Shown piece by piece: positions 1,176 through 54,171 of a DNA stretch of 64,000 nucleotides (position 1 is the stretch's first letter; each line of letters begins with the position of its first letter). Under the pieces are notes generated by a model. The model did no database searches. It saw only the letters and a list, made by a program, of their open reading frames with translations, and was not told the origin of the DNA. The DNA comes from a virus. Lineage: Duplodnaviria; Caudoviricetes. Both the position numbers and the translations under genes were made by a program. The DNA is taken from IMG/VR virus record IMGVR_UViG_3300031867_000022, positions 1 through 64,000 of that record; one strand, 5' to 3'.

Positions 1176-4100
1176 TCAACTAAACGATTGTCTGAACTTA
1201 GTTATCATGTGAGATATAGTAAAGTACTCAGACGGATTATTATTCTTTATACCAACCTTCATCCATTTGCCACGTATTCTATTTCCATACGGCATGTTTT
1301 TATATCTTGGTACATTGTATATTATATTACCCTCTCTGTCTGTAAACGGTTCCATAGATACATCAAATGGTTTATTAATTAGATCTGTTTCAAACGAAAG
1401 TACTGTATCTGAAAGTATGTGCTTATAAGTCTTAAATCTATCCCTCTTTATAGGAACAAGCTACTAAGAATCGTATACCTTTGTTACAGATGCAGAAGGA
1501 TTTACTATAAACTCTAACATAAGAGGAGATAAATACTTCATATCTCCATACTATAAATAGTTATGTTTTGTTATATGTAAAATTTTATCTTCTATCTATA
1601 AACCGTATATATGATTCTTTATATATGCTATATCGTCATACTTTCTTGTATATATAGAAGTGGCTATATTATATTTCAAATTAAATACAATTTGATCGTC
1701 TCCAAAGCATTTACATAACAATTCATTGTTCTATAAATCATAATCGACTTTAGGTACGTCTGTTGTAATTCTATCGTTGATTATATTCTAAACACCAACC
1801 TATTCTCCATAGTTTGCAACTTGATTGCCATTTGTACCTACAACAGCTTTATTGTTTATGTCAACCCAATATATACCATTCTCAACACTAATTGCACAGA
1901 AATCATATAACCTCATTCCGTATTTAGTACTTAAATAATCGTATCTAGAGAGAATGCCGGCTTGACCAAGCATGATCGTATTGTTGTTCTAATCATTAAC
2001 AAGAGAACGTTCGTTTACACTAAACTTACCAAAAGCATGATCCTACCAGTAATACAACATATTTTTATCAGTAAGCATGTTTGTTATCTGTCCGTACTTG
2101 CTATCTACATCAATAAACGCGGCAGGTTTAAAAATTAAGAAATTGTCTATAAATTCTCCATTAGATTTTAATTCAGAATAATAAGCACGTTGTTTAAAGT
2201 TATTTGTTTCGTTTTCGTCAGTACTTATTAGAGTAAATATGTCATTGGAAGAATCATTGTCAGAGTATATCATGTTGTACTGATGTACAGGGCGTTCTTG
2301 TGTGGTAACACCGTCAATAGAACCTGGTTCATATAATAGATTTTCGCTCTACGTATTTATAAGATTCATACCGTAGTCGAAGAATGTATTTACTTTAGAT
2401 TCAAGAGGTACATAATTTGTAATCTAAGTAGACTAAAGTGTATCGACAGATTCAAAATTATACGTCTTGTACATTGTAGTAAACTCGTGAGGAGTAATAT
2501 AAATATCGCCATCAAATACAGTAAGATAATCTTTATCATCTTCTGTAACAAGTCTACCGTTTTCAACCTTTAAGTTGAAATAATTTCCAAAGCCAAAATA
2601 CTACTCATATTCTTCAGATTTTATATCTGCAGTTTTTGGTGTGTGTTGAATATTACAAATAGATGTATATAACTTGTTTTCGTACATTGGAAAAACAGAT
2701 GGTTCATCTTTAGTCGTAAGCAGGAAACAAGATGGCCCAGGACCAATAGGTCCTTTTCTTAACTTCATGTCATAATAATCATGCTCTAGCCACCACACAT
2801 AACTTTCAGACGTTCCTAAGAATTCCTAAACTTCTGCACTTCCATTATCGCCAAGATTTATGTTTGGAGCAGACGCAATTCCAGGTCTAAAATCATACTT
2901 TCCAAAAGATACCCAATTGTTATAAACAAAAGAATCTATGTTTGTAGTATAACTTCTGTATTTTTTTATACCGTCGAATACATTTTGATCAGAATCTCTA
3001 TTTATATTAGTAAACCCATCGTTCCATTGAGCCATTTTAACATCTTTTATGGCGTTTACTTTATGTTTTCCAAAATTAGAATGATCTGAAGTACTAGTAG
3101 TAAAGAAATTGTATATGTAATGGTTTGCCTGTTTTTGTTCAATTGTATCTTTATTTAATAGAGCTCTATCTATTACAACTCCTTCTTGCGAAGATACTTC
3201 TGCTTCATCAAAAATGGTTTTGTTGTACGATTCGTCTTTACTATTATTTGAATATTTTGCTAGAGTAGAAGATACGTATAATTTTTCTGATATATCTGCA
3301 TCAGATACATTCAATCTAGATAATACATCATCTCTTCTAAAATCAATCTCTTGTGAAAATATTTGATACAATTTACGCTCTTTTGTTCTTGCGTGCAATG
3401 CGTATTGAGCAGCTACTGGTATTACATACGTTAACCCACTACTAAAAGCATCACCTCTGTCTGGATGCGCATATGCATCATAATAATACGAAGGTTTGAT
3501 TACCATGTCGTTTACCTGCATAAATCCAGTTGGATAGAATGGAGATTTTTTTATAGTTTCTTCAGTAGTAGTATTCCATTGATCTCCGGTAACATTTAAA
3601 TCAAGCAATCCTTGTTGTATAGGTCTTGCCAACGCAACTTGTAACAATGTTTTCTAATAAACATCCGAAGAAGATCTTCTTACAATCTAACATCCTATTA
3701 TGTCTTCTGCGTTTGATATTTGAGGAATCTTGATGTCTACTCCAATAGGATGAGCTAATAATTTATCTGTACAAGTGAACGGTCTAGATTCGTCATAATC
3801 TGGAGTTTCTATTTCTCCTAGATTTGCTACATCAGTACGTCTTCCGTATTTATCATAAAATACAATAGCATATTTGTACGTTTCACCTCTACGTAAAGAT
3901 CTAAGTAGACTGGAAGTAATTATATTGTTGTACGATGCTGTTACATCCTACGGGTTTATTCCTCGCTGTTTAAGATAGTCTGTAACTGTGGTAGTAACGC
4001 CAGAAGTAGCTTTACTATGTTCTATAGTATTATATCGCTGCGAGTATTTAGTATTGCCTGGATTTGGTATATCTCCAGATATCTTTTCAGATAGAACAAC

Positions 4101-5231
4101 AGTAGTTTTTGCTATACTTATTCTATCCGTATCTTCATAATATGAATCTGGGATCTTTGAATCTCTTATAATAGTATCGTCTTTAACGTTAGCACAAAAC
4201 ATGTATTCTTGGTTTTGCTCTATAGTTTTTGGTATAAGTATTATACCAGACATCGCAGAGAACTCTTCTATAGAAAGCTCTTGTATAGGATCTATACCTA
4301 TATCGTTTAATACAAATTTTTTACCAATTTGAGGTTTCTTAATTTCACCATCGTATATTAATGCAACATGAGCATCTTCTCCAGGTTTTATATATTGAAG
4401 TCTATAAACCTGTAAACGCTCATAATGACCAATATATTTTTTAACATCTACAGAAAGTATAAAACCAATTGATGTTTCTGTATCTTCTGCGTTACCTATT
4501 TCTTTAGATCTAGAAGAATCTATTACTTGTATTTTATTAGTGAGCGGAGCAAGTTGTGTAGTATTACCATATTTATTATAATATCTATAAGTATACTATA
4601 CCTGCGAGGTAATGAGTCTACCGGAAGTAATACCTTCTATATATATTCTTTCTGTAGGAACTACTCTATTGCTAATAAAGTCGTCTACTGTAGTATTACT
4701 TGTTATATTCTTAATACCTTCGTCGTCTATTCTTATACTCATTACAGGGTGTGTACCTGTTGCGATATATAACTTTATTACATTATCTAGTTCTTTATAT
4801 AATACAGTAGATACCTAATCCGGTACATTGGTTGCGTCCCATATCACAGAAGACCATAATAAACGAAGTTCTTTTAGTTCGTTTTCGCTCTCATCTATTA
4901 TAAATCGATATATGTTTATATCTCCACTGCCTTCAGTATTACAAACAATAACTCCAATATTGTCTACTGTTTTTACTGATAATATCTTCTTCCCTTCAAA
5001 CGAAGGTTCGTTTAATAAAATATCTACAACATCCGCTCCTTGGACTACTGGAGTTACAATACCCTCGTGCAAGGAAGAATAATCCCCAGATCCGCCTAGA
5101 AGCTAGTTTTTTGTTATTCTGATATTCTAACCAAATACATATTGCTGATTTTCTATTTGGTCGTATGAAGTATCAGAATTCATTCCTTTTCCAAAAGAAT
5201 TTATCTGTGAATTATTCTCATTAATAACCAT
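1176..5231 (-). CDS. Tail muzzle / tail stabilisation protein (~1351 aa; TAG=Gln)
   Basis: Track ORFs 4815-5072, 3948-4253, 2826-3647, 2601-2798 and 2043-2273 share one frame and are separated by TAG; starts MVINENNSQINSFGKGMNSD, ends TKFRQSFS-TGA; size and position fit the crAss muzzle. Confidence 0.85.
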
Positions 5232-6105
5232 AGTAGTAGTCGTTATAAGTCAACTGTTCTTTATTTATGTGTTTAAAGAATGTATCATCACCATCCCAAT
5301 CTGGGATAAGCTTATTCCAATCATTCTTTATGTTTTGCATATCATCTGCAGTAGGCATCATAGCTTCTGCATAAGCTTGATTACGATAGAAGTTCCACTG
5401 TGACTGTGTATAGAAGTAAGTCTGTTGTGCATACTTCTGTGAATACTTAGAACTACCTGTAGTAAGTTTACCTGACATAAACTTAGGGAATGTAAGCTTC
5501 ATTACTACATACCAATATACAGCTTCTTGATAAGAAGTAAGATCTGGTATTAGAGGATAACCTCTTTCATCTACTGCAATTGCTTTATATGCAAGCTTAA
5601 TAAATCCATGCTTCTGATTTGTTACAATCCAACCAGGCTTGATGAAGTATTCAGGCTTGTTTACATTGCCGTCTATAAACCTCTTTGTATACTTCATGAA
5701 GTTGTTTGTATACAACTGTGATTGTGAAGTAGGAAGTTTATACATCATGGGTTGATGTGTAGGCGGTGGAATTAGCATAGGATGAGGCTTTCTCTTATCT
5801 TTAAAGACTCTAGTCATTGTGCTCATTGGGATCCAAGGACCTTCTGGACTCTCTGAATATGCCACAGCATCCAATACCTACAGATCAGAAGGAATGGGAA
5901 CTTGATAATCCTATATCTTCAATACAGGGGGATCTTCTGCTGATCCTAATTCCCTGCTGATATACTACATAGGGGCACCAATCTTATCAATGGCTTCAAA
6001 TATCCACTCTCGTATATCTGATGTACGCTATCTAACTTCTGTGGAATCTAAATCAGCCATGATCTTTGCTATGACTGATTCACACTTTGTATAATTGTAT
6101 ATCAT
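5221..6105 (-). CDS. Tail ring / tubular protein (P22 gp4-like; 294 aa; TAG=Gln)
   Basis: MIYNYTKCESVIAKIMADLD...; extends ORF 5221-5874 across in-frame TAGs; YKAIAVDERGYPLIPD motif; just upstream of the muzzle. Confidence 0.75.
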
Positions 6106-6523
6106 TTATGTCTATATAATCGTGTTTGTTGAATATCAATTGAGCTAATCTACGTTTATTCTGTCTTACTAGGTTTAGTTGGTACTTATACCTATCTGGG
6201 AACGTCTTAGGTAACTTAGACCAGTATAGTCTATATTTATACCCATCAGAGTGTTCGTTCAAGTGATATATACGCTTATCGTATTCTTTACTTGCTTTAT
6301 AATCTACAGATAGGGATTGCCCTGTCATCGTTTTAGGTCTATACTTCCCAACTTGAATAAAACCTAGCCCATAAGGCATTTTAAAGCCTTCTGAGCGCTC
6401 AAATACATATTCTAGAATAACTTTACACATCTCGTCTAAAATGCGCTTATAGAGGCTGTAATCGACCTCTACGGGCATTGTACGATACATGTCTCGGAAT
6501 GTTGTTGATTGTTTACTTCTCAT
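6080..6523 (-). CDS. IHF/HU-like protein of the crAss tail module
   Basis: FKMPYGLGFIQVGK beta-arm pattern; position between ring genes. Confidence 0.7.
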   Translation of the reverse strand: MRSKQSTTFRDMYRTMPVEVDYSLYKRILDEMCKVILEYVFERSEGFKMPYGLGFIQVGKYRPKTMTGQSLSVDYKASKEYDKRIYHLNEHSDGYKYRLYWSKLPKTFPDRYKYQLNLVRQNKRRLAQLIFNKHDYIDINDIQLYKV

Positions 6524-7256
6524 CCTCTCTTGGACCGTCTGGCTTTATTCCATCCAGCGTTGCGTTATTACTATCGTCGCTAGGTCTATTAAGCATAAAT
6601 GCAAGCTCATTGTTCATTATGAGCTTCTTGATGTCTGGGACCATCCATGTAGGAATCTTTATATCATCCTCATCTGGATCCTCTGCATCGTCTTCGTCTG
6701 AATTATCCTCAGGTTTCTCATATACTGCCAGAACATATATATGGTCAAGGAGACCTTGGTCTTGCAAGCCTTGAACATATACGTGTTTGTCATCCATATA
6801 GTAGGCAGTAAGTTCACCAAATGTGTACTTTCTATAGTACTGGTAATGTCTACGTATATGGTTCATATACTAAATGTTCTCGCCGGCTTCATCATGTACA
6901 GCGAGAATACTAGTCCATCTGTTATTGAATATATTCTCAAGAGTGTCTACTGTTCTCTTAGTGAAAGAATCCCTACCAGGATCATTAGAATCGACCTTTT
7001 CAAGCTCGTGGTACGTTTCTTTTAACTCAAGGTATTCATTGTCCACAAGGTCTTCTAAAGCGGCTCCTAGAAGCTCTTTTTCCTTAAGTTCGTCAAGGTG
7101 CTTCTTCCATAGCATTCTACGGTAATGATCTACCCAAGCTGCTATATGAGCTCTAGAGAAGTCTTCACTCTCGCTTATATTACTATTTCTGGCTATGAGA
7201 AGTATATCATCTATAATCTCTCTAAGAGATGTTTTAGCTGGTGAAATCTTACTCAT
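6513..7256 (-). CDS. Tail ring protein (247 aa; one TAG at 6870-6872)
   Basis: ORFs 6870-7256 and 6513-6866 fuse in frame across TAG; SLREIIDDILLIARNSNISESEDFSR N-terminus. Confidence 0.75.
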
Positions 7257-10720: not shown

Positions 10721-11407
10721 TTATTCTTGTGTTAATACTTCGTTGGTTATAGTTTTATATCTAGCATCAGATTGATTTTCTATATACATCTGAGCTGCTA
10801 TCTTAATTATTTCCAACCAAGTGTAATCTTCAAAGTCGACGTAATCGTGATTGATATCGTCGTCTTTAACTTCTTCCGGCACTTTAAGGTAACCTAAAGT
10901 GTAGGAGTATATATTATAGTTAGTATCCGTCAACAGACGAAATCCTTCCTTAGTTCTAACTCTAAGAGGTCTTGCTCTATGGTATTTGTAATGAAAGTCA
11001 GTAAGAGAGTTATTAACTCTGTACATAAAACTATCTGCTGTACATTCAAATACACAAGTATCCATCATATGCTTATTATTGTTGTCTGATATAACAACAT
11101 CTTCGTTTAGTACAAACATCATATCCGTAGGGTATTTGTACTCGTAAGAATCATACGACTTGCTAACTTTATAATTGATAGGTCGTAAAGATACTTCCTT
11201 GTGTAAGTTAATTAAATCTCTTGCTCGCTTTTCAGTTTCTTCATAACCAGTTCCTCTTGGAGCAGCACCGTTAAATCTTTCTTTTGTAAACTTAACGACT
11301 GCTTGATTTATCCAGAATAAAGAATCGTCTGTAAGCGGTTTTTCTAATGAGTTGTTGAGCTTATTTATTTCTAGTTCAAATGCCCCGATTAACTGATAGT
11401 TCTTCAT
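10721..11407 (-). CDS. Tail ring protein (228 aa)
   Basis: FELEINK..., GYEETEKRARDLINL, GYLKVP...EIIKIAAQMYIEN; paralogous to neighbouring rings. Confidence 0.8.
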   Translation of the reverse strand: MKNYQLIGAFELEINKLNNSLEKPLTDDSLFWINQAVVKFTKERFNGAAPRGTGYEETEKRARDLINLHKEVSLRPINYKVSKSYDSYEYKYPTDMMFVLNEDVVISDNNNKHMMDTCVFECTADSFMYRVNNSLTDFHYKYHRARPLRVRTKEGFRLLTDTNYNIYSYTLGYLKVPEEVKDDDINHDYVDFEDYTWLEIIKIAAQMYIENQSDARYKTITNEVLTQE

Positions 11408-12120
11408 TCTTGTTCATTCTTTTGGTTATTGCGCTGCTGTTGCGCTTGTTCTTGTTGTCTACGTCTATTAGCTTCTGCTCCAGATACGTATTGTACATAT
11501 AGGTCTACAGCACCCGATACAAGCTGCTCAAACATCTCCATAGGTAGTTCACATCTAGTAGATGTAAGAGGGTTCATATAGTTTGGTAACTTATAATATT
11601 CAAGCTGTATATTTACAGGCTCTGTATAACGATCATAGAGCGCTCCTAAGCCGTTTTCATCGGCTAGCCATACAATTGGACTCCTGAGGATTCTTAAGCT
11701 GTCCTAGGGCCTAGAAATAAGCTTATTTACATCTTTTACAGATATAAGCTCGTTTGGTATAGTACCAGCACCAGTTTCTCCGTTTAGCCTATACGATGAG
11801 CTAACTTTACTATAGCTTTTAATATACAAACCAAAATTTTGAGGTAGTTCGCATCTACATATAGGTCTAGTAGAAGAAGGAGTAAGCTAAGCTGTTTCCA
11901 TCATACTATTCAACAGAGTCTCTATGTATGTTTCAGCATTAGACGTAGGAATCTAATCTACGGTTCTATATAAATCGTGGATAAGCTTGTCTTGATATTG
12001 ATTCAAGAAAGAGTATATAGTCTCAGAATCAAGTTTCTCAAGTATTTCTTTTTGCGGGATCATCGTTTGAACCCTACGCTCAAACTCAATCCCTAGCTGT
12101 CTCGTTTCTTGTATCGTCAT
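11404..12120 (-). CDS. Tail ring protein (238 aa; TAG=Gln; missing from the ORF track)
   Basis: MTIQETRQLGIEFERRVQ...EYYKLPNYM...CELPMEMFEQLVSGAVDLY; ATGA overlaps at both ends. Confidence 0.8.
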
Positions 12121-12263
12121 GCCTCAAGCCCCCTCGTATTAAGTTTAGTATTAAGTCTCGTAGATTCAACATTTTCAAGTGCAAACGCAATAGCTAAGTT
12201 TATGAGTTCTTCTGCCATCTGATCAGATAACTCAAAGTCTACTGTATCGGAAAATGTTTTCAT
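12117..12263 (-). CDS. Separately encoded C-terminal helix of the split ring protein (48 aa)
   Basis: MKTFSDTVDFELSDQMAEELINLAIAFALENVESTRLNTKLNTRGLEA aligns with the C-termini of the paralogous rings; ATGA-coupled to the next ring gene. Confidence 0.75.
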   Translation of the reverse strand: MKTFSDTVDFELSDQMAEELINLAIAFALENVESTRLNTKLNTRGLEA

Positions 12264-12266
12264 AAT
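12250..12266. repeat. 17-bp direct repeat, copy 1 (GAAAATGTTTTCATAAT)
   Basis: Identical to 15810-15826. Confidence 0.9.
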
Positions 12267-12299
12267 TTATACCATTATATAAGTGCCTGTTGCATCTAC

Positions 12300-15200
12300 T
12301 TATAGTTTTACTATATTATCCTCATAGACATCTATAGCACTTGTAGCATCTGGTTCAGATGACCAAATATTGTCTTTTGCTACAATATAGCTTTCGGTAG
12401 AAGCTTTTGTTACATATATAGGTTTTATTACTTGACCGATTCTATTATTAGATATTATAAGTAATTGAATATATGAATTTTCTTGTATGTCTATACCTCT
12501 TCCATCAGGCGTATTTGGACAAGACAGTATATTATTCGATACAACTATATTCTTATATATTGGATCTGTTTGTAGATTATTATATTTAAAAGAAATACAA
12601 GCACTATAGTCTTGACCAGCATCGTTAATTAGAACATTATTATCTATAATGACATTCTAAAACATCTTAGCTCCAGCCACTTGTATAAAACCATGATTCC
12701 AATTACCTATAACACTTCCTTTAATATAGTTTCCTCTTATTTCAGAATCACATATTTGAGCACCTGAATTAAATATAAATGCAGCCTTTCCAAATACAGT
12801 ATTGTTATTAATCTTTAACTTCTTAATACCGGTAGACATCATTTCTATAGCCGACTCTGTCACCTTAAAATAATTATCATGTATATTAGCAATCGGATTA
12901 ATAATTGCTGATGAGTCATAATTCGCTATTCCTATACCCTTATATACTTCATAAAAATAGTTATGATGTATATTAAAATTGTCCACACCTGCGTCATGAA
13001 CCGCACAACTACCACTTGATACACTGACAATACTATTTCTTATTGTATTATTATAGAAATCTACATTAATACATTTTTGGATATAAGCACAATGTCTTGG
13101 AATGTTATCAAATACATTATTATATATTTTAATATTATTAGTTGGAGACGCAGAATCTGTATAATGACAGACAACTCCATATCCACCAGCACCATCGGCT
13201 CCAGGATTATCAAGACTTGTTGGAATGTATTTCATGTCTTTCATAATACAATTTGAAACAATTATGTTAGAACTTGTGGGTTCTATCATAACAGCTCCAG
13301 TAGCGTCAGAAAGAATACAATTATTTATAATAATATTGTTACATCCACCAGCTAAAGAACCTATATCAATAAGATAAGAAGCTCTTGCTGTTGTGGAATC
13401 TTTTTCAGGATATCCTTCTGCAACACCTTTGATGTTTAGATTTTCAATTACAACGTTGTTACTTGTTATCCAAAAGAAACGCAAAGGCTCATTAGAAATA
13501 AGATTTGCATCAAAACCTCTAATAGATGTTGGTTTTTCAATAGGGATGTATGACGATAATAGATATGTACCTTTATTAATTATTATATTATTAAAATATA
13601 TAACACATTTTTTTATAGCATCTGTATCATCAGTAGTTCCATCACCCTTAGCCCCAAACCACTCAGGATATGCTTCTGCAACGTTCCAAGTACCAGCAAG
13701 AGTAATATCAGTATCGAGTATCTTAATCAGACCAGCACTAATGCCTGTATTAGTACCAGTAATAGTATCATTACTACCACTTGCAGAAATACTACCCCCG
13801 TCAAACTCCAACACACAATTCTCAGGAATAGTAATATCTTCACCAAGAGTAAAGTCATATCGAATGACATAGACGGTGTTAGCATCACTAAAGTCCTCCT
13901 GAGTAAGAACATTACTGCCACCTTCTTTCAGTTCAAGTGTCTTCCTGCCGAGACCACTATGTGCAGTTGGGTCATAAGACCTATCAGGATTACCACCAAC
14001 ATTTTCAAGAGCTTCTGTAATGACCTTATTTTGTACAGGATGTGTACTTGTCTTAGAAAGGGTAGTATCTACAATTACACCTTCTGGAATTGTAGGTTTG
14101 TTTGTCAAATCATTATAGTCTCCACTAAACAATTGTGTATTAGCAGGTAATGCTCCAACTTCAGAAGCAGTATAGGTTGGTTTTGAAGCTTGTTTTGCCC
14201 ATGCAGGAACAGTTGGATCTGTCTCTGTAAAACTTTGAAGAGCGGTATCAGCTTTTCCTAACGAAGTTTGTACACTACTTGCAAGATCTGTCTTAGGAAT
14301 ACCGCCAGAAGGTTTGCTGTATGTTCCGGTATTTTTAGTAAATCCCCAATCAGAAACAGTACTTTCTGTTACGTTGTCGAGTGACGCAAGCTTTTCTTTT
14401 TCTGCAGTTGTGTAATCGTTTGTAGACAATCCTTTGCCACTAACTTTATCAACCTTAGTTGTATCGCTTGGGTGTCTATGATCTCCTCTTGCAAAAGCGA
14501 GTTCTGTACCTACAGATGCAGTACCATCCATCTTTGGAGTAGTTGTAGAAGCAGCTGCACCTTCAGGAATATCGCTTGTTGTTATATAGCCCTAATTTCC
14601 TACCCAAGTCTTAGTAGCCATGTCAGAAGTTGCAGTATTTATTCTTTGATCAGTAATAGTCTTATTATAGTACTATGTAGGATCAAAAGTTCCACCCTCG
14701 GCAACCTTTTCATCTATAGTTTGCTTATCGTATGTATAATTAGAAACGTATTGCTCAGATGCAAGACCTTCGATAGATGGAATTGTCGGTTTGTTTAGAA
14801 TTTTAGCATCCCCTGATGTAGCATTCCAATCTGCATTTACGTTTACATTTGCTCCAGCAGCTATACCAGCAAGTTTATTTTTTTCTGCAGTAGTATAGTC
14901 ATTAGTAGACAAGCTTTTTCCACTTACTTTATCGACTTTATTGTTTAGTTCTGTGTCGTATGCATCGTTGGCGTCGTCTATCTCGCTTTTTGTGTAATAA
15001 TTAGTCGGATCGAATGTACCTCCTTGTGCAACCTTTTCGTCAATGGTCTATTTATCGTAAGTATAATTTCTTACATACTATTCAGATGCTAGACCGTCTG
15101 TAGAAGGGATTGTAGGTTTATTAGACAAATCGTTATAAGATCCCGATGTAGCAACCTAAGCCAAATCTATAGAATTAGCTTTATTTGCAATTTCAGTATT

Positions 15201-15791
15201 TTGTGTCTGATTTATTGCGTCTACTTGTGATTTTGTATAATACTGAGTTGGATCAAAATTGCCACCTGCAGAAATCTTATTGTCTATTGTCTGTTTGTTG
15301 TATGTATAGTTAGCAACGTATTGTTCAGAAGCAAGACCGTCTATCGATGGGATAGTAGGTTTATTAGATAGATCGTTATAAGAACCACTAGTAGCAACTG
15401 TAGAAAGAGATGTTCTGTCTGCCTTTTTAGCTATTTCTAAATCCTACTATTGCTGCTGATTATCTACTTGCGATTTAGTATAGTAATTATTTAGATCTAC
15501 ACCACCTGTTACAAGGCTTTCAAGTTCGGAAATTTTATCTCGATTTTCTTCAATGAGATTTTCGTTTCCTATGATTCTGCTTTTGATTGTACTATAATCC
15601 TACTTTATTTCGTTCGCTATATCCTCTACTTGATCTGCTTTTTCCATAAATTTGCAGCAGCAACATTTATGTTTCTTGTATGGTTTTGCACAGCAGTTAC
15701 ATGAATCGTTATATTCGTTGCATTCTGTACAAAACAAAGGATTATTACAACACTGTTGTAATTCTTCACAAATAATATTATTTTCGCACAT
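12300..15791 (-). CDS. Tailspike/fibre with Cys-rich N-terminus, internal repeats and a C-terminal pectate-lyase-like beta-helix (1163 aa; TAG=Gln)
   Basis: ORFs 15600-15791, 14673-14912 and 12657-14531 are in frame; repeats SYNDLSNKPTIP and KVDKVSGKGLSTNDYT; PEWFGAKGDGTTDDTDAI followed by an Asn/Ile-rich beta-helix. Confidence 0.85.
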
Positions 15792-15809
15792 ATTTATATT
15801 GATTAATTA

Positions 15810-15826
15810 GAAAATGTTTTCATAAT
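15810..15826. repeat. 17-bp direct repeat, copy 2; starts the mini-ORF MKTFSN* (15803-15823, minus strand)
   Basis: Identical to 12250-12266. Confidence 0.9.
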
Positions 15827-15829
15827 ATG

Positions 15830-17737
15830 TTAAGCGGATACATTAGACGTATTAATATAATATTGTCCGGCCTACCAACTGGTGATAGTTTTTCCAGACA
15901 AGTTAAATAGACTGCTTGTTGTATCGAGTACCCACAACGAAACAGTATCTGTTTCGGATACATTTTCAAATTGTACTCCAGAAGATGTCTATGATAAACT
16001 TACTCCACCAAAGCCAGTTTTAATATTTACGTTTGGATTTATAATTGAAGATTTCTTATTCGGTATCGACAGCCAATAGTCTGCTCCATCTACATTTGAA
16101 ACTCTATAGTACACGTTTCCTGTATAGTTTGCACTACCATTAGTGTATGTACACCCTACATATTTAGAAACTGTAGCAATAAACACATCTTGATGGGCTC
16201 CAGAACCACTACTAGTATGGCGAACAAATACATTCTTCTAACCTTGAAGCTAGTATGTAATATTATTATCTGTAGCAAGAGTAGTTCCTGCCTAATTAGA
16301 GTAATATACTCCTGATGTATTATAATAATAATTACTCGTTTGTGTTACATCTGAGTCAGACAATATGTATCGTTTCAATGTATTGCTTGTGCCCCCAGAA
16401 TTAGCTACAGGGGCGAAATCGAAAAAATATTTCGGTGTATGTGTCTGAGGATTATATACAAGTCCGATTGGTTCTCCGTTTTGAATAGCACTTGCGTTGA
16501 GGTTTTCGTATCCAGCCCCTCTATACGCATCAGACATTGTTGTAAACACAATAGTAGGATTATTATTATCTATAACTTCAAATGATGTTGCTTTTACATC
16601 TCCTTTTACGGTAATATTTCCAGCTTCCATATCAGTTGCTGTAACATAACCATCTAAGTCTATTTTATCTGCACTAATTTTTACACTTCCACCATATTCA
16701 TTTACCTTTGCTATTACTGCAGCAGAAGTAAAATCATTAGCTGCCATAAGTTCTGCTGTTGCAGAATTGAGATCAGCTTTGGTAGTAAGACCTGCTTTCC
16801 ACGTGTTGATTCTATTTACAATGTTAGTTTTAGAATCCGATCCAGTTATAGAAAAAAGAATAGATGCTACATCATCGTTCGTCTTACTAATCTTATTAAA
16901 AATCTCAGTCTTTGCATTATTACTAGAAGCGCTAGCTTTAAGTCCGGCAATAGCTTCATCAACCTTTGCTTCCATAGATGCAGTAGCGACATATTCGCCA
17001 TTCTTTAATTTCTCAACATATGTACGAAGTTCTGCAATAGCAGAAGACAATCCACTTTTACCTGCAGATACAATTTCATTATACGACTTATCTGCAGAAG
17101 TAGACTGTTTTAATGCTGAATACATCCATTCTATAACAGTTTCAGCATTCTTTCTAGCATACATAGTAGACAAATCAAGACTTGCTACAGAATCTTCTAT
17201 CTTGGCGTTAATAGCAGCTTGTAGAGCTTCTTGATCAACGCCATTTTCAATAAGATTATTTACAGATGCTCTAAGACTATTTACATCTTGTGCTATAGTA
17301 GACCAGCCATAGGTAACCTATCCGTTATTTCTAGTAATAATACCGATCTATTGAAGATACGCATCCACATCATCATCGCCGAAATTGCTTTCTGATTGTA
17401 TTCCTTCTTTAAGTTCGTCTAAGAAGTCTTTATCGGTAAGCATTTCATTAACCTTATCTTCTACAGTATCGTTGATGTCGTCGATTACTCCATCAAGACG
17501 TTCTCTTTCTTCATTTGCAGTAGCATTAGCTCTATCAATGGCATCTTGTAAATCTTCTAATGCTTCTCTTATTTCTGAATCGTCGTATTGCGAACCTTCA
17601 CCAGATCCACTACCAGAACCGCCAGTATCAATTGAAGATAGTGCATTAATTATTTCGTCTATTTTATTTGAAATAGCATTTAGCTCAGCAGCAGTCAATA
17701 CTTGATTTTTTTGAAATACTTTATTTAATTTATTCAT
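15830..17737 (-). CDS. Fibre-like protein with an N-terminal coiled coil (635 aa; TAG=Gln)
   Basis: ORFs 17348-17737, 16292-17173 and 15989-16186 are in frame; KNQVLTAAELNAISNKIDE start; VKISADKIDLDG motif. Confidence 0.75.
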
Positions 17738-18408
17738 TGTATTCTATCTTCACTATTTAGTTGTGAAACATCTAATATAAAAACATCTTCTTCTGGATCA
17801 TAGTATGTAGGATCAGTAGAGCCTCCTGTACCATCGTCCACCATACATTCTACAAAACTTGCAGGTTTCTTTATGTATGACAAATGTACTTTACCGTTTG
17901 TATCTGGCTTATTGACAGGATCATATACTACAAATGCAGAGTTGCCTTCAATAAAGCTGACTGGGTTCTTAACCCAGGGCATGTTGTATGGAGTATTAAA
18001 GAACTTCTCTGCCATTTGGTGAGTAACTAGTTTAGTAGGCACTAATCTAGTAGTCTGACCGTCCATCGGTGTACCATTGACGTGTTGATTCAACGAAGAA
18101 GACACGTAGTACATTAGATCATCTGGTAGATAATACTTTACAATATTTGTAGCAGGAGTATCTGTACCCTAAAACAATTGAGGATCCGCATGTTTTACTA
18201 ATGGCGCAAGGTCTGCAATAGCTTTCTCATCATACTCAAATGGAACTCTACGAGGATTGTTACCTGTAAATTTCTAACCAATCAGTGCTAAGTAGGCTCT
18301 ATCAAGAAGCGTTGCAGCTTCATATTCTGTTAACGATGGATATGACGAAGTAACATTAGCTTTGTCGTACCCTATCAGGAATTTAGTATATATGTCTTTA
18401 TGCGTCAT
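17734..18408 (-). CDS. N-terminal part of a split tail ring protein (224 aa; TAG=Gln)
   Basis: MTHKDIYTKFLIGYDK...FTGNNPRRVPFEYD...SYIKKP, then an unrelated tail ending FILDVSQLNSEDRIQ; lacks the ring C-terminal helix. Confidence 0.8.
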
Positions 18409-18427
18409 ATCTCATTGTTATAAAGAA

Positions 18428-19180
18428 TTATTTATTCTCTACTTCGTTTATAATAGAAAGCTTCAGATCTTGATTCTTCTTACTGTCCAGGTAAGCGATT
18501 GCATCTTCAAGAGAGTCTGCAAACATGTCAGTACCGTAGAAGTAGTGTGTCTTATCCTTACGAATAACACCTTTCGCAATAGCATTCTCAAGCAAGAATT
18601 CTGTCTCCTTAGACTTGTTGTTAACCCACTTATCAAAGAACTTCTTAGGATTCTTATCTACCATAGTAAACAAAGTAGACTCAACAAGTTCATTAGACAT
18701 GCGATCTGCACTCATACCAAACAGACGTAAACACTTACGCATCTGCTCAAGACTAAGAGAATCAAACTCTTTAATTGCATCACGACGAAGTTTATTCTGC
18801 TTATTCTGTTCTACTGCCTCTGCTTCACGATTAATCAACAGATAATCTTTACCTGCATCAAGGTGATCAAGAGATGTAGCCACACGCTTATGACCACTAA
18901 GGAACTTAATAATCATAGCCTGACGAGGAATAGAATCATCAAGAATAAGTGTTCTAGAACCAATCTTTACACAAAATGTTGTCCAAAAGTCTGATGACTT
19001 AGCAAGATGACCTTCTGGGTAACCTAAAGCTTTTTCAAAGTATTTCTCATCTTCTGGGGTGAGACCCGTATATATCGACCCGGAACGAGTAAAATAAGGT
19101 GCAATGTAATCAAAACAACTCTTATACTTAATCAACCCTGCCCAGGGATTCTTCTTCTTAATTTTAAGTTCAACTACCAT
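18428..19180 (-). CDS. Conserved crAss protein immediately downstream of the major capsid gene
   Basis: Intact 250-aa ORF; synteny. Confidence 0.65.
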   Translation of the reverse strand: MVVELKIKKKNPWAGLIKYKSCFDYIAPYFTRSGSIYTGLTPEDEKYFEKALGYPEGHLAKSSDFWTTFCVKIGSRTLILDDSIPRQAMIIKFLSGHKRVATSLDHLDAGKDYLLINREAEAVEQNKQNKLRRDAIKEFDSLSLEQMRKCLRLFGMSADRMSNELVESTLFTMVDKNPKKFFDKWVNNKSKETEFLLENAIAKGVIRKDKTHYFYGTDMFADSLEDAIAYLDSKKNQDLKLSIINEVENK

Positions 19181-19200
19181 AATTGTATAATTAGTATGTT

Positions 19201-19244
19201 GTGATGCTGAACGCCCCAGCCCTTATGACTGGGGCTCAGACATC
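19201..19244 (-). terminator. Stem-loop after the major capsid gene (terminator or stability element)
   Basis: GCCCCAG...CTGGGGC inside TGATG...CATCA. Confidence 0.55.
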
Positions 19245-19263
19245 AATTATATTTTAAATGAGA

Positions 19264-20787
19264 TTACGCACCTACAGCGATACCACCGTTGTTAGAAATC
19301 TCTGTATCCTCAGCATCGCAGTACAGAATACCGCAAGACAGCGGGTTACGGAGCATAATACCCTCCTCACCGAGGAAGTGTACCTGATAACCATCACGGC
19401 TGTTAGAACGCAGAGTGTTGATGCTGTTACCGTAACCACTAGGAATTACAGAACCGCCAGTTGTCCACTGTACGAACTCACGACCCTTACGACAAACCTT
19501 AACGACGTTAGCCTGACCGTCACGTGAACCAAGGTCTACGAACAGGAAGGTGTAAGACATCAGAGGTTTACCTGTCAGAGGATGCAGCTGACGGAACATC
19601 TCCATGTTATCGAACATAGGACAACGCTTCAGAGTCAGCTCGATGCCGTTAGTCATCTTATAGGTAGTAAACTGACCACCGAGAGTCAGCTCCTGACCAG
19701 AACCAGTGATAAACTTAGTATCGATCAGGTTGAAGGTAGCAACCTTCTCCTTCAGGATACGGTCGAACTCACGAATACCCATCTCACCAGTCAGAGCGAT
19801 AAACTTACGCTCGTTGGTACCGAGGATGTTGTAGCAGAGGTCGAAGAGGTAGTCCTCAAGCAGCTCAGCTGTCAGAGTGGTGTAGTAACGAACGTTAGCT
19901 GGACTAATCTGCTCGAACAGACCGCTCATCGTAGGAGCAGGACGACCGTTTGTACCCTTTGTGAGGTATGTACCATCGCTCAGACGGTTACTCTTAGAGA
20001 AGAGCAGAGCCTTTTCCTCACGCTTCTTCCACTCACGAAGAGCAATCCAATACTGATAATCAGACCACAGATAAGATGTCTTACCACTCTCAGGATCCTT
20101 CAGAGCGATAGCAAGAACGGTGCTATAAGCATCACCAGTGATATCGTAGCTCAGACGGAGAGTCTGCAGGTGGTTACGCATCTTAAACGGAGTCTGATAG
20201 TTGATGATATCAGCCTCATCGCTGTACTCCTCGTAGGCAGAACCGATACGGCTCACCTGACGACCAGCCAGCAGGAACTCACCAGGAATATAAGCAGCCT
20301 GTGAACCATCAATCACATAGCACTCATATACCCAAGCGCTACCATCCTGATAGGGAACACCATTTACGCGAACCTGGAACTTATAATCATCGAAGCTAAG
20401 AATAGCACCTGGGCCATACCAACGCTCCTCAAGAGCGAGGTAGATAGGAGTACCATTCAGACCCGGAGTGATAGTAGCATAGTTAGCAGGAGTAACTTCC
20501 TGACCATTCCACTTAGCCCAACGGATATTAACAGCGTGCTCGCTGTCGATCATTACTGACCATTCAAATTCACGATTCTCGATAATCATTGTCTTGCCAA
20601 GACCACCGGTAATCATATCAATAGCGGTAGAAACACCGTCATCCTTTGTACCAAATACCAGTGAAAGCAGACCAGATACCTCATGAGGCTTGGTCAGCAG
20701 CGCATTAGAAATCATATTCTCATCTACCAGGTCGCTGAAACGACGTCCGCGATACAGCTGGAGATTATTAAGCAAACTATTATTCAT
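19264..20787 (-). CDS. Major capsid protein (507 aa, TAG-free)
   Basis: crAss-type MCP sequence (GSAYEEYS..., VHFLGEEGIMLRNP); biased codon usage; follows the scaffold gene. Confidence 0.9.
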   Translation of the reverse strand: MNNSLLNNLQLYRGRRFSDLVDENMISNALLTKPHEVSGLLSLVFGTKDDGVSTAIDMITGGLGKTMIIENREFEWSVMIDSEHAVNIRWAKWNGQEVTPANYATITPGLNGTPIYLALEERWYGPGAILSFDDYKFQVRVNGVPYQDGSAWVYECYVIDGSQAAYIPGEFLLAGRQVSRIGSAYEEYSDEADIINYQTPFKMRNHLQTLRLSYDITGDAYSTVLAIALKDPESGKTSYLWSDYQYWIALREWKKREEKALLFSKSNRLSDGTYLTKGTNGRPAPTMSGLFEQISPANVRYYTTLTAELLEDYLFDLCYNILGTNERKFIALTGEMGIREFDRILKEKVATFNLIDTKFITGSGQELTLGGQFTTYKMTNGIELTLKRCPMFDNMEMFRQLHPLTGKPLMSYTFLFVDLGSRDGQANVVKVCRKGREFVQWTTGGSVIPSGYGNSINTLRSNSRDGYQVHFLGEEGIMLRNPLSCGILYCDAEDTEISNNGGIAVGA

Positions 20788-38055: not shown

Positions 38056-39063
38056 TTAGTTATTACTAGCCCAAGGGCCTTGATTATTTGTTTTAGCCCA
38101 GGCAATATATGTTACAATATCACCCCAAGTTACGTTCTTTTGAGCTTCTGTACCTTCTATAATATCATAGAAGTCATCAGCCTGTTTTACGTATTTCTTT
38201 GCATTTGTAGCAAGTTTTCCGTTTGGAGTATTATCGAAGATACCAGTATCATCAGTCTTGCCAGAATCCTACATGGTACGTGTAGCCATGAGGACTTTAC
38301 CATTCATATTAAAACGATACTCATCCGTAAACAAAGAAGACTTCTCAGTATTAAATGTACCGAATTCAAGACCGTCACCACCACCGTGCTCGAACTTAAT
38401 CTTGTTCATGTTACCATCGCCGTCATAACCCTTAGGTTGAATAGCTATGCCGCCATGATCTTCGCAACGAAGATCGATTGCATTAGCACGAAGCTTCAAG
38501 TAACCATACTGTCCGTTTGATGTAGTAGCTTTTTTTGCTTTTACACCGGTTTTGATTTCGAGATTTAGAATGTTGGCTTTATCTGCAGTATTATCTTTTC
38601 CTTCTGCAGTTCTAGCCTTATTCTTCTCACTAATATAAATACCTTTATCTTTAGTAGTAAGAGTAACGTTTGCAGCATTCAGCTGTAGATCTACAGGATA
38701 TTCGTCAATTTCTGCACTATCGGTAGCAGAAACTTCTGCGCCATTAAGAACCTTTACTGAGAGTTCTTCTTGATTACTTCTATGGTGTGAATACAGCGTG
38801 ATATCGTCACCTGGCTTTACCTGCAAATCACTAATAGGTTCTATGTTGATTTTGCCTCCTTTGACTTTATCGCCATCCATGTACTGATCTTCTGCAGTAG
38901 TTACAACGTTAAGGTTGTGTTTACCTTCAGAATCAAAGGACACGTGTGAACCACCTCCGTTTACTTCGTCTACAACTTCGTTCACATACCCAGTAAGACC
39001 ATTCCAATCAGAAGCACTGAGAGTATCTCCAGTTGTTTTTTGTATAAATGTTTGTTTTGTCAT
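38056..39063 (-). CDS. Fibre-like protein (335 aa; one TAG)
   Basis: KTTGDTLSASDWNGLTGYVNE N-terminal motif resembles that of 15830-17737. Confidence 0.6.
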
Positions 39064-39824: not shown

Positions 39825-39899
39825 TGGTCGCCCCACCATCGAGTCGAACCCGGACCTGGAGGGTTAGAGCCTCCCGTGCTACCGCTACACCATGGAGCA
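39825..39899 (-). tRNA. Amber suppressor tRNA (anticodon CTA), tRNA-Gln-like, CCA encoded
   Basis: TGCTCCA/TGGGGCG acceptor, GGTGTAGCGGTAGCAC D arm, GGAGG-CTCTAAC-CCTCC anticodon arm; irregular T stem. Confidence 0.88.
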
Positions 39900-53630: not shown

Positions 53631-53807
53631 ATGAAGTACGAAAATTCTATGCATCGATTCTTTCAAGTTAGTAGCGGAGTTTCCCTTATTATAGCAGGTA
53701 TAAGTATGCTAAAAGGCAATATGCAAGGTGCAACATTTGGTGTGCTTTTGGCCATACACTTAAACATGCTATCTTGGAATTATGAAGATTACGATGAGGA
53801 AGAATAA
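53631..53807 (+). CDS. Small two-TM membrane protein (58 aa)
   Basis: MKYENSMHRFFQVSSGVSLIIAGISML...FGVLLAIHLNML. Confidence 0.5.
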   Translation: MKYENSMHRFFQVSSGVSLIIAGISMLKGNMQGATFGVLLAIHLNMLSWNYEDYDEEE

Positions 53808-53829
53808 GAAATCTTAGCGTGTCCCAGGA

Positions 53830-54023
53830 TAAGTCGTTCGGACGGCGGTTCGATTCCGCCCAGGTCCACCTATATTAATAAATATGGGCTTGACTGGTTT
53901 AGACGGCGACAGAAAGTAAGACATCAAGCGCTTTGATATAAAAATTAAACGGCAACATAAACGTTGTTGACTACACGGGTCTCCAGGAGGCAGCGTGAAG
54001 TCGGTGAACCCTACCTAAGTGGG
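53830..54023 (+). ncRNA. ssrA: Circularly permuted (two-piece) tmRNA; outer boundaries approximate
   Basis: 3' acceptor half GGACGGCGGTTCGATTCCGCCCAGGTCCACC (53840-53870) precedes the 5' half GGGCTTGACTGGTTTAGAC (53886); G3.U70 pair; tag ORF GNINVVDYTGLQEAA* at 53951-53998. Confidence 0.88.
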
Positions 54024-54025
54024 GA

Positions 54026-54081
54026 GAGTGAGTAGCGTTAATTCGCCCAGGTACAGGTGGGTTCGAATCCCACACTCACTC
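54026..54081 (+). ncRNA. tRNA-like minihelix without an anticodon arm
   Basis: GAGTGAGT/ACTCACTC stem plus GTGGG-TTCGAAT-CCCAC T arm. Confidence 0.7.
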
Positions 54082-54171
54082 CTACGTCGTGAGACGCATT
54101 AGACTGTCTTAAAGGATAGTCTCTTTCGTGAATGGTAGGTGCAGGTGAAGTATAGTAGCCTGCACCGTAAT

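Follow-up and report, generated by a model that had tools for sequence, protein, structure and literature searches.

Crassviruses are the most abundant human gut phages, and to our knowledge the way in which receptor-binding proteins are attached in most of them is known from a single structure, that of phicrAss001. The ring proteins of the phicrAss001 tail share a fold of three conserved helices and a beta-sandwich (Bayfield et al. 2023, PMC10172136). The closest described case of a phage gene that works in pieces is nrdA of phage Aeh1, which is split by mobE and whose product is reassembled non-covalently with insertion-derived tails (Crona et al. 2011, PMC3045599). Here we analyze a 64,000-nucleotide (nt) stretch of DNA (the window; positions 1 to 64,000 of IMG/VR record IMGVR_UViG_3300031867_000022), which is part of a complete 100,632-bp crAss-like phage record with terminal repeats, and describe a tail-barrel ring gene, ringA, that is cut into two open reading frames (ORFs) by a receptor-binding cassette. 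The larger piece, ringA-N, ends in a new tail, the smaller piece, ringA-C, encodes the C-terminal helix of the ring protein as a peptide of 48 amino acids (aa), and the genes for a fibre (fib1) and a tailspike lie between them (Table 1). Judged by comparison with its relatives, this gene fission is real, conserved and selected. In the literature searched, we found no description of a split ring gene with a fibre cassette.

The late genes of this phage lie on the minus strand and are chopped under genetic code table 11, whereas reading TAG as glutamine yields long ORFs. With TAG as a sense codon, the positions and sequences that the first-pass annotation had given for the ring ORF and the 48-aa ORF are correct. 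The ringA-N ORF contains two in-frame TAG codons, stops at TGA, and matched the Pfam family PF25710 (CrAss_Ring_3_4) with 31.2 bits (cut-off 27) across positions 1-180 of the 230-position profile. Its product leaves the family sequence after ...SYIKKP and ends in FILDVSQLNSEDRIQ just before the stop. Residues 1-186 (17851-18408) hold the three helices and the beta-sandwich, and residues 187-209 form a disordered acidic and proline-rich linker. When ringA-N was modeled alone with AlphaFold2, helices were placed at residues 3-18, 28-48, and 61-70 and strands up to residue 180, and residues 189-224 were predicted to be disordered (predicted local distance difference test score, pLDDT, ~41-46). 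The sandwich is kept in this model, but the confidence of the helices is 60-77 compared with 80-93 in the model of an unsplit orthologue, and the drop falls in the helices against which the missing C-terminal helix would pack. Here no single polypeptide contains the whole PF25710 fold, as its last helix is encoded 5.5 kb downstream in an ORF of its own, and two gene products stand for the family. PHROGs gave no match for ringA-N, the 48-aa peptide, or the two contiguous ring paralogues ringB and ringC, and PDB sequence searches with the ring profile and the fibre N-terminal profile returned chance-level matches only.

After the capsid gene, the genes follow in the order 250-aa gene, ringA-N, fib1, tailspike, 48-aa ORF, ringB, and ringC. 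The 48-aa peptide had initially been aligned with the ends of both paralogues; in BLASTP searches the alignment with ringC held (E=4e-4, 37% identity over 38 aa), while that with ringB was not significant (E=1.5). The first-pass annotation had also taken this peptide for the helix missing from ringA-N, and orthologues that end exactly in the peptide bear this out far beyond chance. About 70 of the 120 best ringA-N homologues are contiguous, with lengths of 232-372 aa, and the peptide sequence forms the end of 73 of the homologues classified. The last 40-48 residues of the contiguous homologues are 63-88% identical to the 48-aa ORF, with E values reaching 3e-22. The peptide aligns as the C-terminal helix of the family, which is among the best conserved parts of the unsplit protein and which is contained within a single chain in ringB, ringC, and phicrAss001 gp34 and gp35. 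The AlphaFold2 model of one unsplit orthologue, P0039 (pLDDT 87), comprises three N-terminal helices, a beta-sandwich, and a C-terminal helix at residues 199-218, with the last 15 residues disordered; ringA-C corresponds to helix 199-218 and the tail that follows it. Foldseek matched this model along its full length to chains D, E, and F of the phicrAss001 tail barrel, 7QOJ (E 1e-12 to 3e-10, template modeling (TM) score 0.69-0.71, ~227/233 columns), a fold match that was made with the unsplit orthologue and not with the split pair.

The order of capsid gene, 250-aa gene, ringA core, helix, ringB, and ringC is kept in every fetched relative (L-numbered loci) that is long enough. Core and helix lie in one ORF of 238-790 aa in 48 loci. 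The gene is split as in the window in L002, L003, L058, L059, L060, L061, L065, and L071, where ringA-N ends in the tail motif described below and one fibre gene (149-834 aa), a helix ORF of 47-54 aa, and ringB come next; in L071, a fibre gene and a gene for a 1715-aa spike lie between the ring pieces. L038 also has a separate small helix ORF, and the split occurs in at least 10 independent assemblies with differing inserts. The split loci were drawn from IMG/VR, ENA, Logan, and an NCBI metagenome-assembled genome, and their recurrence in independent assemblies, together with the conserved synteny, argues that the split is not an assembly artefact. A search for homologues had been suggested as a way to find unsplit orthologues with variable inserts at this site, and both were found. 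Of the hallmarks of genes in pieces, contiguous orthologues, a break that coincides with inserted foreign genes, and purifying selection on both fragments are present. A single origin of the split is not supported, as a tree of the first 150 residues needs seven changes of state, at least three of which are forced by well-supported branches; on this tree, it is likelier that the cassette was repeatedly gained, lost, or moved by transfer. By these comparisons, the split is old and has been kept.

The new tail of ringA-N ends in a motif of 15 residues, F-x-L-[DN]-x-S-x-L-[DN]-x-x-D-[KR]-I-Q. Across 44 split-type sequences, 54 columns of ringA-N are invariant, four of which are in the new tail (F210, L212, S215, and L217). 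Synonymous variation among the motif codons (ratio of nonsynonymous to synonymous polymorphism, pN/pS, 0.30; Ser encoded by TCN and AGT) indicates that selection sees the peptide rather than an RNA signal. Every fibre that follows a split ring carries an N-terminal module consisting roughly of x-K-L-N-K-x-F, five further residues, L-x-A-x-E-L-N, and then K-I-D-E-[IV]-I. A profile of this module matched 209 or more representative proteins (42-2417 aa), almost all of them from residue 1, and in the phage's own genome fib1 was the one strong copy (E 1e-22). A region-limited homologue search with the fibre N-terminus returned only four near-identical proteins, and a degenerate DNA pattern for the same segment found a single viral contig, which was informative.

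Motif and module occur together. Among 1,190 distinct ORFs (six frames, at least 80 aa) in the window and the fetched loci, 13 end in the motif, and all 12 whose downstream sequence is known directly precede a module-bearing fibre. The pairing extends beyond ring genes, in three or four contexts among the five such fibres examined: the proteins upstream of module fibres end ...LILDIGKLDINTLG in L064 (75 aa), ...YLTLDKSKLDVSKLK in L066 (361 aa), and ...FQLDSSNLDQSKLI in L068 (307 aa), and a 123-aa protein in L067 (3619-3990) ends ...FVLCSSELCGTNILI, with Cys at both Asp/Asn places. The L067 protein is encoded directly after the portal gene of a ~103-kb phage and precedes a 1017-aa collagen-like fibre with the module. 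Five genomes that are 99-100% complete and have an unsplit ringA yielded no module-bearing fibre at E up to 1. In L001, which is 98% identical to the window in the core, a deletion has removed the linker, the motif, and fib1 together: the ring sequence ...GTGGACGATG is joined, at a shared ATG, directly to the DNA that lies after fib1 in the window. The shortened ring piece of L001 (198 aa; L001:2203-3047) stands directly before the tailspike. Because of the motif-fibre pairing, the unsplit genomes that have no module fibre, and the joint loss in L001, docking of the fibre on the ring tail appears to be the best reading of these data. The idea that the freed C-terminus may dock the fibre encoded next, which was part of the first-pass annotation, is supported by this strict co-occurrence, including that outside ring genes.

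The split and trans-complementation could also be real while the tail motif serves another end, either joining the two ring pieces or taking part in translational coupling of the fibre gene, and we regard this as unlikely. Insertion-created tails are essential for assembling the split NrdA of phage Aeh1 (Crona et al. 2011, PMC3045599), and the last codons of ringA-N, which overlap the region where the fibre starts, show good conservation of the DNA sequence. However, the L064, L066, and L068 proteins that end in the same motif are unrelated and unsplit and have no helix ORF nearby, and each stands directly before a module fibre. The Leu, Ser, and Asp/Asn codons of the motif vary synonymously, with Ser drawn from both codon families, and the motif disappeared with the fibre in L001.

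It is much less probable that the 48-aa ORF is a dead remnant, with ringA-N either working without the helix or being dispensable, ringB and ringC being enough for the barrel. With three ring-3/4-like paralogues there could be redundancy, and AlphaFold2 folds the ringA-N sandwich even alone. The peptide, however, evolves with ratios of nonsynonymous to synonymous substitution rates (dN/dS) of 0.03-0.40, far below 1, at near-saturated dS of 0.3-1.6 (seven split loci), and by this measure strong purifying selection acts on the 48-aa ORF. Stand-alone homologues, of which a small-protein search found 81 clusters, have conserved its length and start, most clusters being of 46-50 aa and 39 of exactly 48 aa, with the majority beginning M-x-[TA]-F-S-[DN] and the majority ending RGLEA. 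The strong conservation of the helix in unsplit proteins and the 54 invariant columns of ringA-N also argue against loss of function. Contiguous orthologues, the recurrent split, and selection on the helix ORF all support the earlier suggestion that the ring is assembled from two polypeptides.

The reading frames themselves are arranged as separate genes. Both of the ATGA overlaps reported in the first-pass annotation are present, each of 4 nt, one between ringA-N and fib1 (17734-17737) and one between ringA-C and ringB (12117-12120), and the 48-aa ORF is bounded by a TAA two codons upstream. The peptide ORF retains its own start codon in every split locus, and this codon is ATG in all loci but one. 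Of the other split loci, nine in number, six have a 4-nt overlap between its start and the stop before it (five ATGA, one TTGA), and in L058 and L059 the helix ORF starts within 2 nt of that stop. In known ribosomal bypass, ~50 nt separate matched take-off and landing codons, and we know of no precedent for a bypass of 5.5 kb. That the pieces are rejoined into a normal one-chain ring protein, by splicing or ribosomal bypass as had been offered as another option, or by an intein, is scarcely credible. Self-splicing elements do occur in the group, as relatives carry HNH/NUMOD4 ORFs inside their capsid genes, but an Rfam search of 11000-19500 with E up to 1 gave no intron match. The genes in the 5.5-kb insert are all complete, each with a coupled start of its own, and ringA-N stops at its own codon behind a C-terminal motif that is under selection. 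The start of the peptide ORF that is kept in all split loci and the 81 clusters would be superfluous under splicing. The insert is out of frame and has stops in the ring frame and so is not an intein, and the gap is 5,471 nt with translated genes as against ~50 nt in bypass of the T4 gene 60 type. That the first piece has kept its stop and tail and the second its start codon points to two separate products rather than to splicing. We infer that the 48-aa ORF is expressed and that there is no joined transcript.

Insertional fission, with the helix supplied in trans and the fibre captured by the tail, is in our judgment very probably the best explanation of this locus. The ancestor would have had a contiguous ring-3/4-type ringA directly before ringB and ringC, and a receptor-binding cassette would have entered the surface linker between the last sandwich strand (...SYIKKP) and the C-terminal helix. 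Three products would then have been made from one late operon by translational coupling: ringA-N, one or more fibres, and the 48-aa microprotein. RingA-N would now end in the flexible acidic and proline-rich linker and the 15-residue motif, while the microprotein would pack in trans against the ringA-N helices and complete the adaptor-like fold, allowing a normal dodecameric ring. The new tail would point outward and capture the KLNKTF...L-x-A-x-E-L-N...K-I-D-E module of the fibre encoded next, and the outcome would be an extra, exchangeable set of fibres on the barrel. The conserved flanks (the ring core on one side, the helix and ringB on the other) could let the cassette be exchanged by recombination.

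In the window, the slot was used twice: a tailspike gene was later inserted near the very start of the helix ORF, within its opening codons, with a 17-bp duplication. An exact 17-bp direct repeat brackets the tailspike (12250-12266 and 15810-15826), and the left copy lies in a six-codon remnant of the helix ORF start, from which the tailspike start is 11 nt away. The repeat and the remnant indicate that the ancestor had the common one-fibre layout and that the tailspike entered afterward. The same layout is found in L071, where the fibre is 88% identical over its first 379 residues and the 1715-aa spike shares the Cys-rich N-terminus, differs in its distal part, and has a stop that overlaps the helix ORF start. 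The tailspike of the window scored 24.3 bits against PF13229 (Beta_helix), just under the Pfam cut-off of 25.9, and matched tail-fibre PHROGs. Its start (15645-15791, minus strand) has ~16 Cys in the first ~48 residues, including CC and CCCC runs, and this segment is kept in L001:2811-3047 and in L071 from 2225 onward with differing distal parts; it could be a metal-binding or disulfide-locked anchor.

Several points weigh against this explanation. What the comparisons establish is that the gene is split, that it descends from a contiguous ancestor, that the split recurs, and that purifying selection acts on the two pieces and the motif; that ringA-N associates with the peptide and that the motif binds the fibre is what we infer from those same sequences. 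The peptide ORF of the window begins 36 nt past the spike stop with no overlap, and it is the sole locus of this kind. One of the five module fibres outside ring genes, that of L069, has no motif in the ORF directly upstream, and the motif pattern was widened to Cys only after L067 had been seen, so that L067 is not an independent prediction. In addition, phicrAss001, the only solved crassvirus, docks its fibres on the separate hubs gp38 and gp39, which are bound to R1 and R2. The N-terminus of phicrAss001 gp22 is unrelated to the fibre module, which led us to reject the module as a version of that hub-docking N-terminus, and the hub proteins are likewise unrelated to motif and module. These differences suggest that the attachment route proposed here is additional to, or different from, the hub route. 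None of the phicrAss001 structural proteins ends in the motif.

The site of the insertion is variable in other ways as well. In L038 (L038:2952-5308), the ring core is fused in frame to a C-terminal extension of ~550 aa (734 aa in total), and the helix is a separate 51-aa ORF. The ring of L037 (L037:1498-3870) is an unsplit protein of 790 aa with an in-frame insert of ~550 aa before the last strand, which by eye appears to contain repeated Ig-like segments. Other unsplit proteins have linkers of 0-140 residues at the same place. A ring loop that acts as a plug-in slot for receptor-binding modules, as envisaged in the first-pass annotation, fits this variety, which includes a lone fibre, a fibre with a spike, a covalent fusion, and domains inserted in frame.

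We tentatively raise the possibility, which we hold at somewhat less than even, that these pairs belong to a general plug-and-socket code of gut Bacteroidota phages, in which tails of the form F/L-x-L-D-x-S-x-L-D recruit KLNKTF...ELN..KIDE fibres and the ringA linker is a recombination hot-spot for modules. If this were true, exchangeable fibres could be bolted onto any scaffold, be it a ring of the barrel, a protein next to the portal, or a further fibre component, and modules at the ringA linker would be swapped, fused, or stacked. It would also give a sequence-readable rule for the position of accessory fibres and for host-range switching in crassviruses.

Table 1. Features of the split ring locus and other features located in the window
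Feature	Position	Strand	Basis or remark
ringA-N, 224-aa N-terminal piece of ring-3/4-type tail-barrel protein	17734-18408	(-)	PF25710; 709 homologues
Tail motif, ringA-N residues 210-224 (FILDVSQLNSEDRIQ), proposed docking peptide	17737-17781	(-)	Conservation, fibre pairing
fib1, 635-aa fibre, ATGA-coupled to ringA-N	15830-17737	(-)	N-terminal module, Gly/Ser linker, coiled-coil-like region
fib1 N-terminal module, residues 1-35	17633-17737	(-)	Alignment of fibres after split rings
Six-codon remnant of helix-ORF start (MKTFSN, then stop), directly after fib1 stop	15803-15823	(-)	Contains left repeat copy 15810-15826
Tailspike, 1163 aa: Cys-rich N-terminus, fibre repeats, right-handed beta-helix	12300-15791	(-)	ORF, Pfam, PHROGs
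Right copy of 17-bp repeat, minus strand ATTATGAAAACATTTTC	12250-12266		Start of intact helix ORF
ringA-C, 48-aa ORF for ring C-terminal helix	12117-12263	(-)	ATGA-coupled to ringB
ringB, contiguous 238-aa ring paralogue	11404-12120	(-)	3 in-frame TAGs; synteny conserved
ringC, contiguous 228-aa ring paralogue	10721-11407	(-)	PF25710, 32.4 bits; synteny conserved
Crassvirus capsid protein gene	19264-20787		Pfam
Ring_2 gene	6513-7256		Pfam
Ring_1 gene	5221-6105		Pfam
Muzzle protein gene	1176-5231		Pfam
Suppressor tRNA, anticodon CTA	39825-39899	(-)	Lets TAG-containing late genes, including ringA-N, be read

Three observations elsewhere in these genomes were made alongside. A 335-aa protein (38056-39063, minus strand) has a weak variant of the module at its start (38938-39033, E 0.008) and precedes a 2047-aa protein; an upstream motif was sought for this match and rejected, as the preceding gene (dUTPase-like) ends without one. 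The capsid gene of several relatives is broken once or twice by inserts of ~0.9 kb that encode NUMOD4/HNH endonucleases (L002:3799-6185, L026, L060:6764-9132, and L061:5891-9107), which are probably self-splicing introns, and the window's own capsid gene is intact, with no such insert. In the early region, ARAGORN called a permuted gene resembling transfer-messenger RNA (tmRNA) at 53776-54089 (plus strand) with the tag peptide VVDYTGLQEAA, which may be a false call or a phage-borne tmRNA.

If the fission and capture of fibres proceed as proposed, a whole clade would attach additional, exchangeable fibres differently, by way of a tail that has grown on a subunit of a barrel ring. The cost would be a ring gene that is cut and whose last helix is kept as a 48-residue microprotein easily overlooked by standard annotation. 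RingA would be a rare example, and a well-supported one, of a gene for a virion structural protein that works in pieces. A simple sequence rule, in which a fibre with the N-terminal module comes after a C-terminal motif, could serve to predict how fibres are attached and cassettes exchanged in uncultured phages, and small ORFs beside fibre genes are likely to be virion parts.

The locus combines genes in pieces with modular fibre attachment, both of which are of known kinds. Its ring proteins resemble R3 (gp35) and R4/R5 (gp34) of phicrAss001 (7QOJ), belonging to the same Pfam family with a TM score of 0.7 for the unsplit orthologue model and sharing the C-terminal helix pattern [FC]-E-L-...-E-x-[LI]-...-A-[VI]. 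As in phicrAss001, they follow directly after the capsid gene and a gp33-like gene, with ringA at the gp34 (R4/R5) position by synteny. Unlike the single-chain rings of that phage, however, the last helix here is a separate 48-aa product with fibre genes inside the ring gene, and this lineage has five ring genes where phicrAss001 has four.

Among genes in pieces, nrdA of Aeh1 is the closest precedent, as an inserted gene cuts an essential phage gene, the pieces carry new tails that arose with the insertion, and function in Aeh1, as proposed here, is restored by non-covalent assembly instead of splicing. It differs in that the insert here is a receptor-binding cassette rather than a homing endonuclease, the protein is structural, and one piece is only a 48-aa helix. 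The tail here also appears to recruit the product of the inserted gene rather than to join the pieces, and the arrangement is widespread with varying cargo.

Among fibre attachment systems, the fibre-dock 'rope' proteins of podophages GP4 and A1002 and the split nozzle of A1002 (PMC13730344) likewise divide a tail-core function over two products, and an extended segment of a core protein offers places where separately encoded fibres can dock. The two systems are unrelated in sequence, and the GP4/A1002 fibres are dimers that attach by beta-sheet augmentation along a long rope, whereas here a single short C-terminal motif seems to be paired with a fibre N-terminal module. The anchor-branch systems of Klebsiella and T7-like phages share with this locus a conserved N-terminal fibre module, variable distal parts, and cassette-like exchange. 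In contrast to those systems, a 15-residue tail would serve as the socket, carried by a subunit of a barrel ring or by other proteins encoded upstream, with no adaptor or gatekeeper domain, and the cassette lies inside the gene of its own scaffold.

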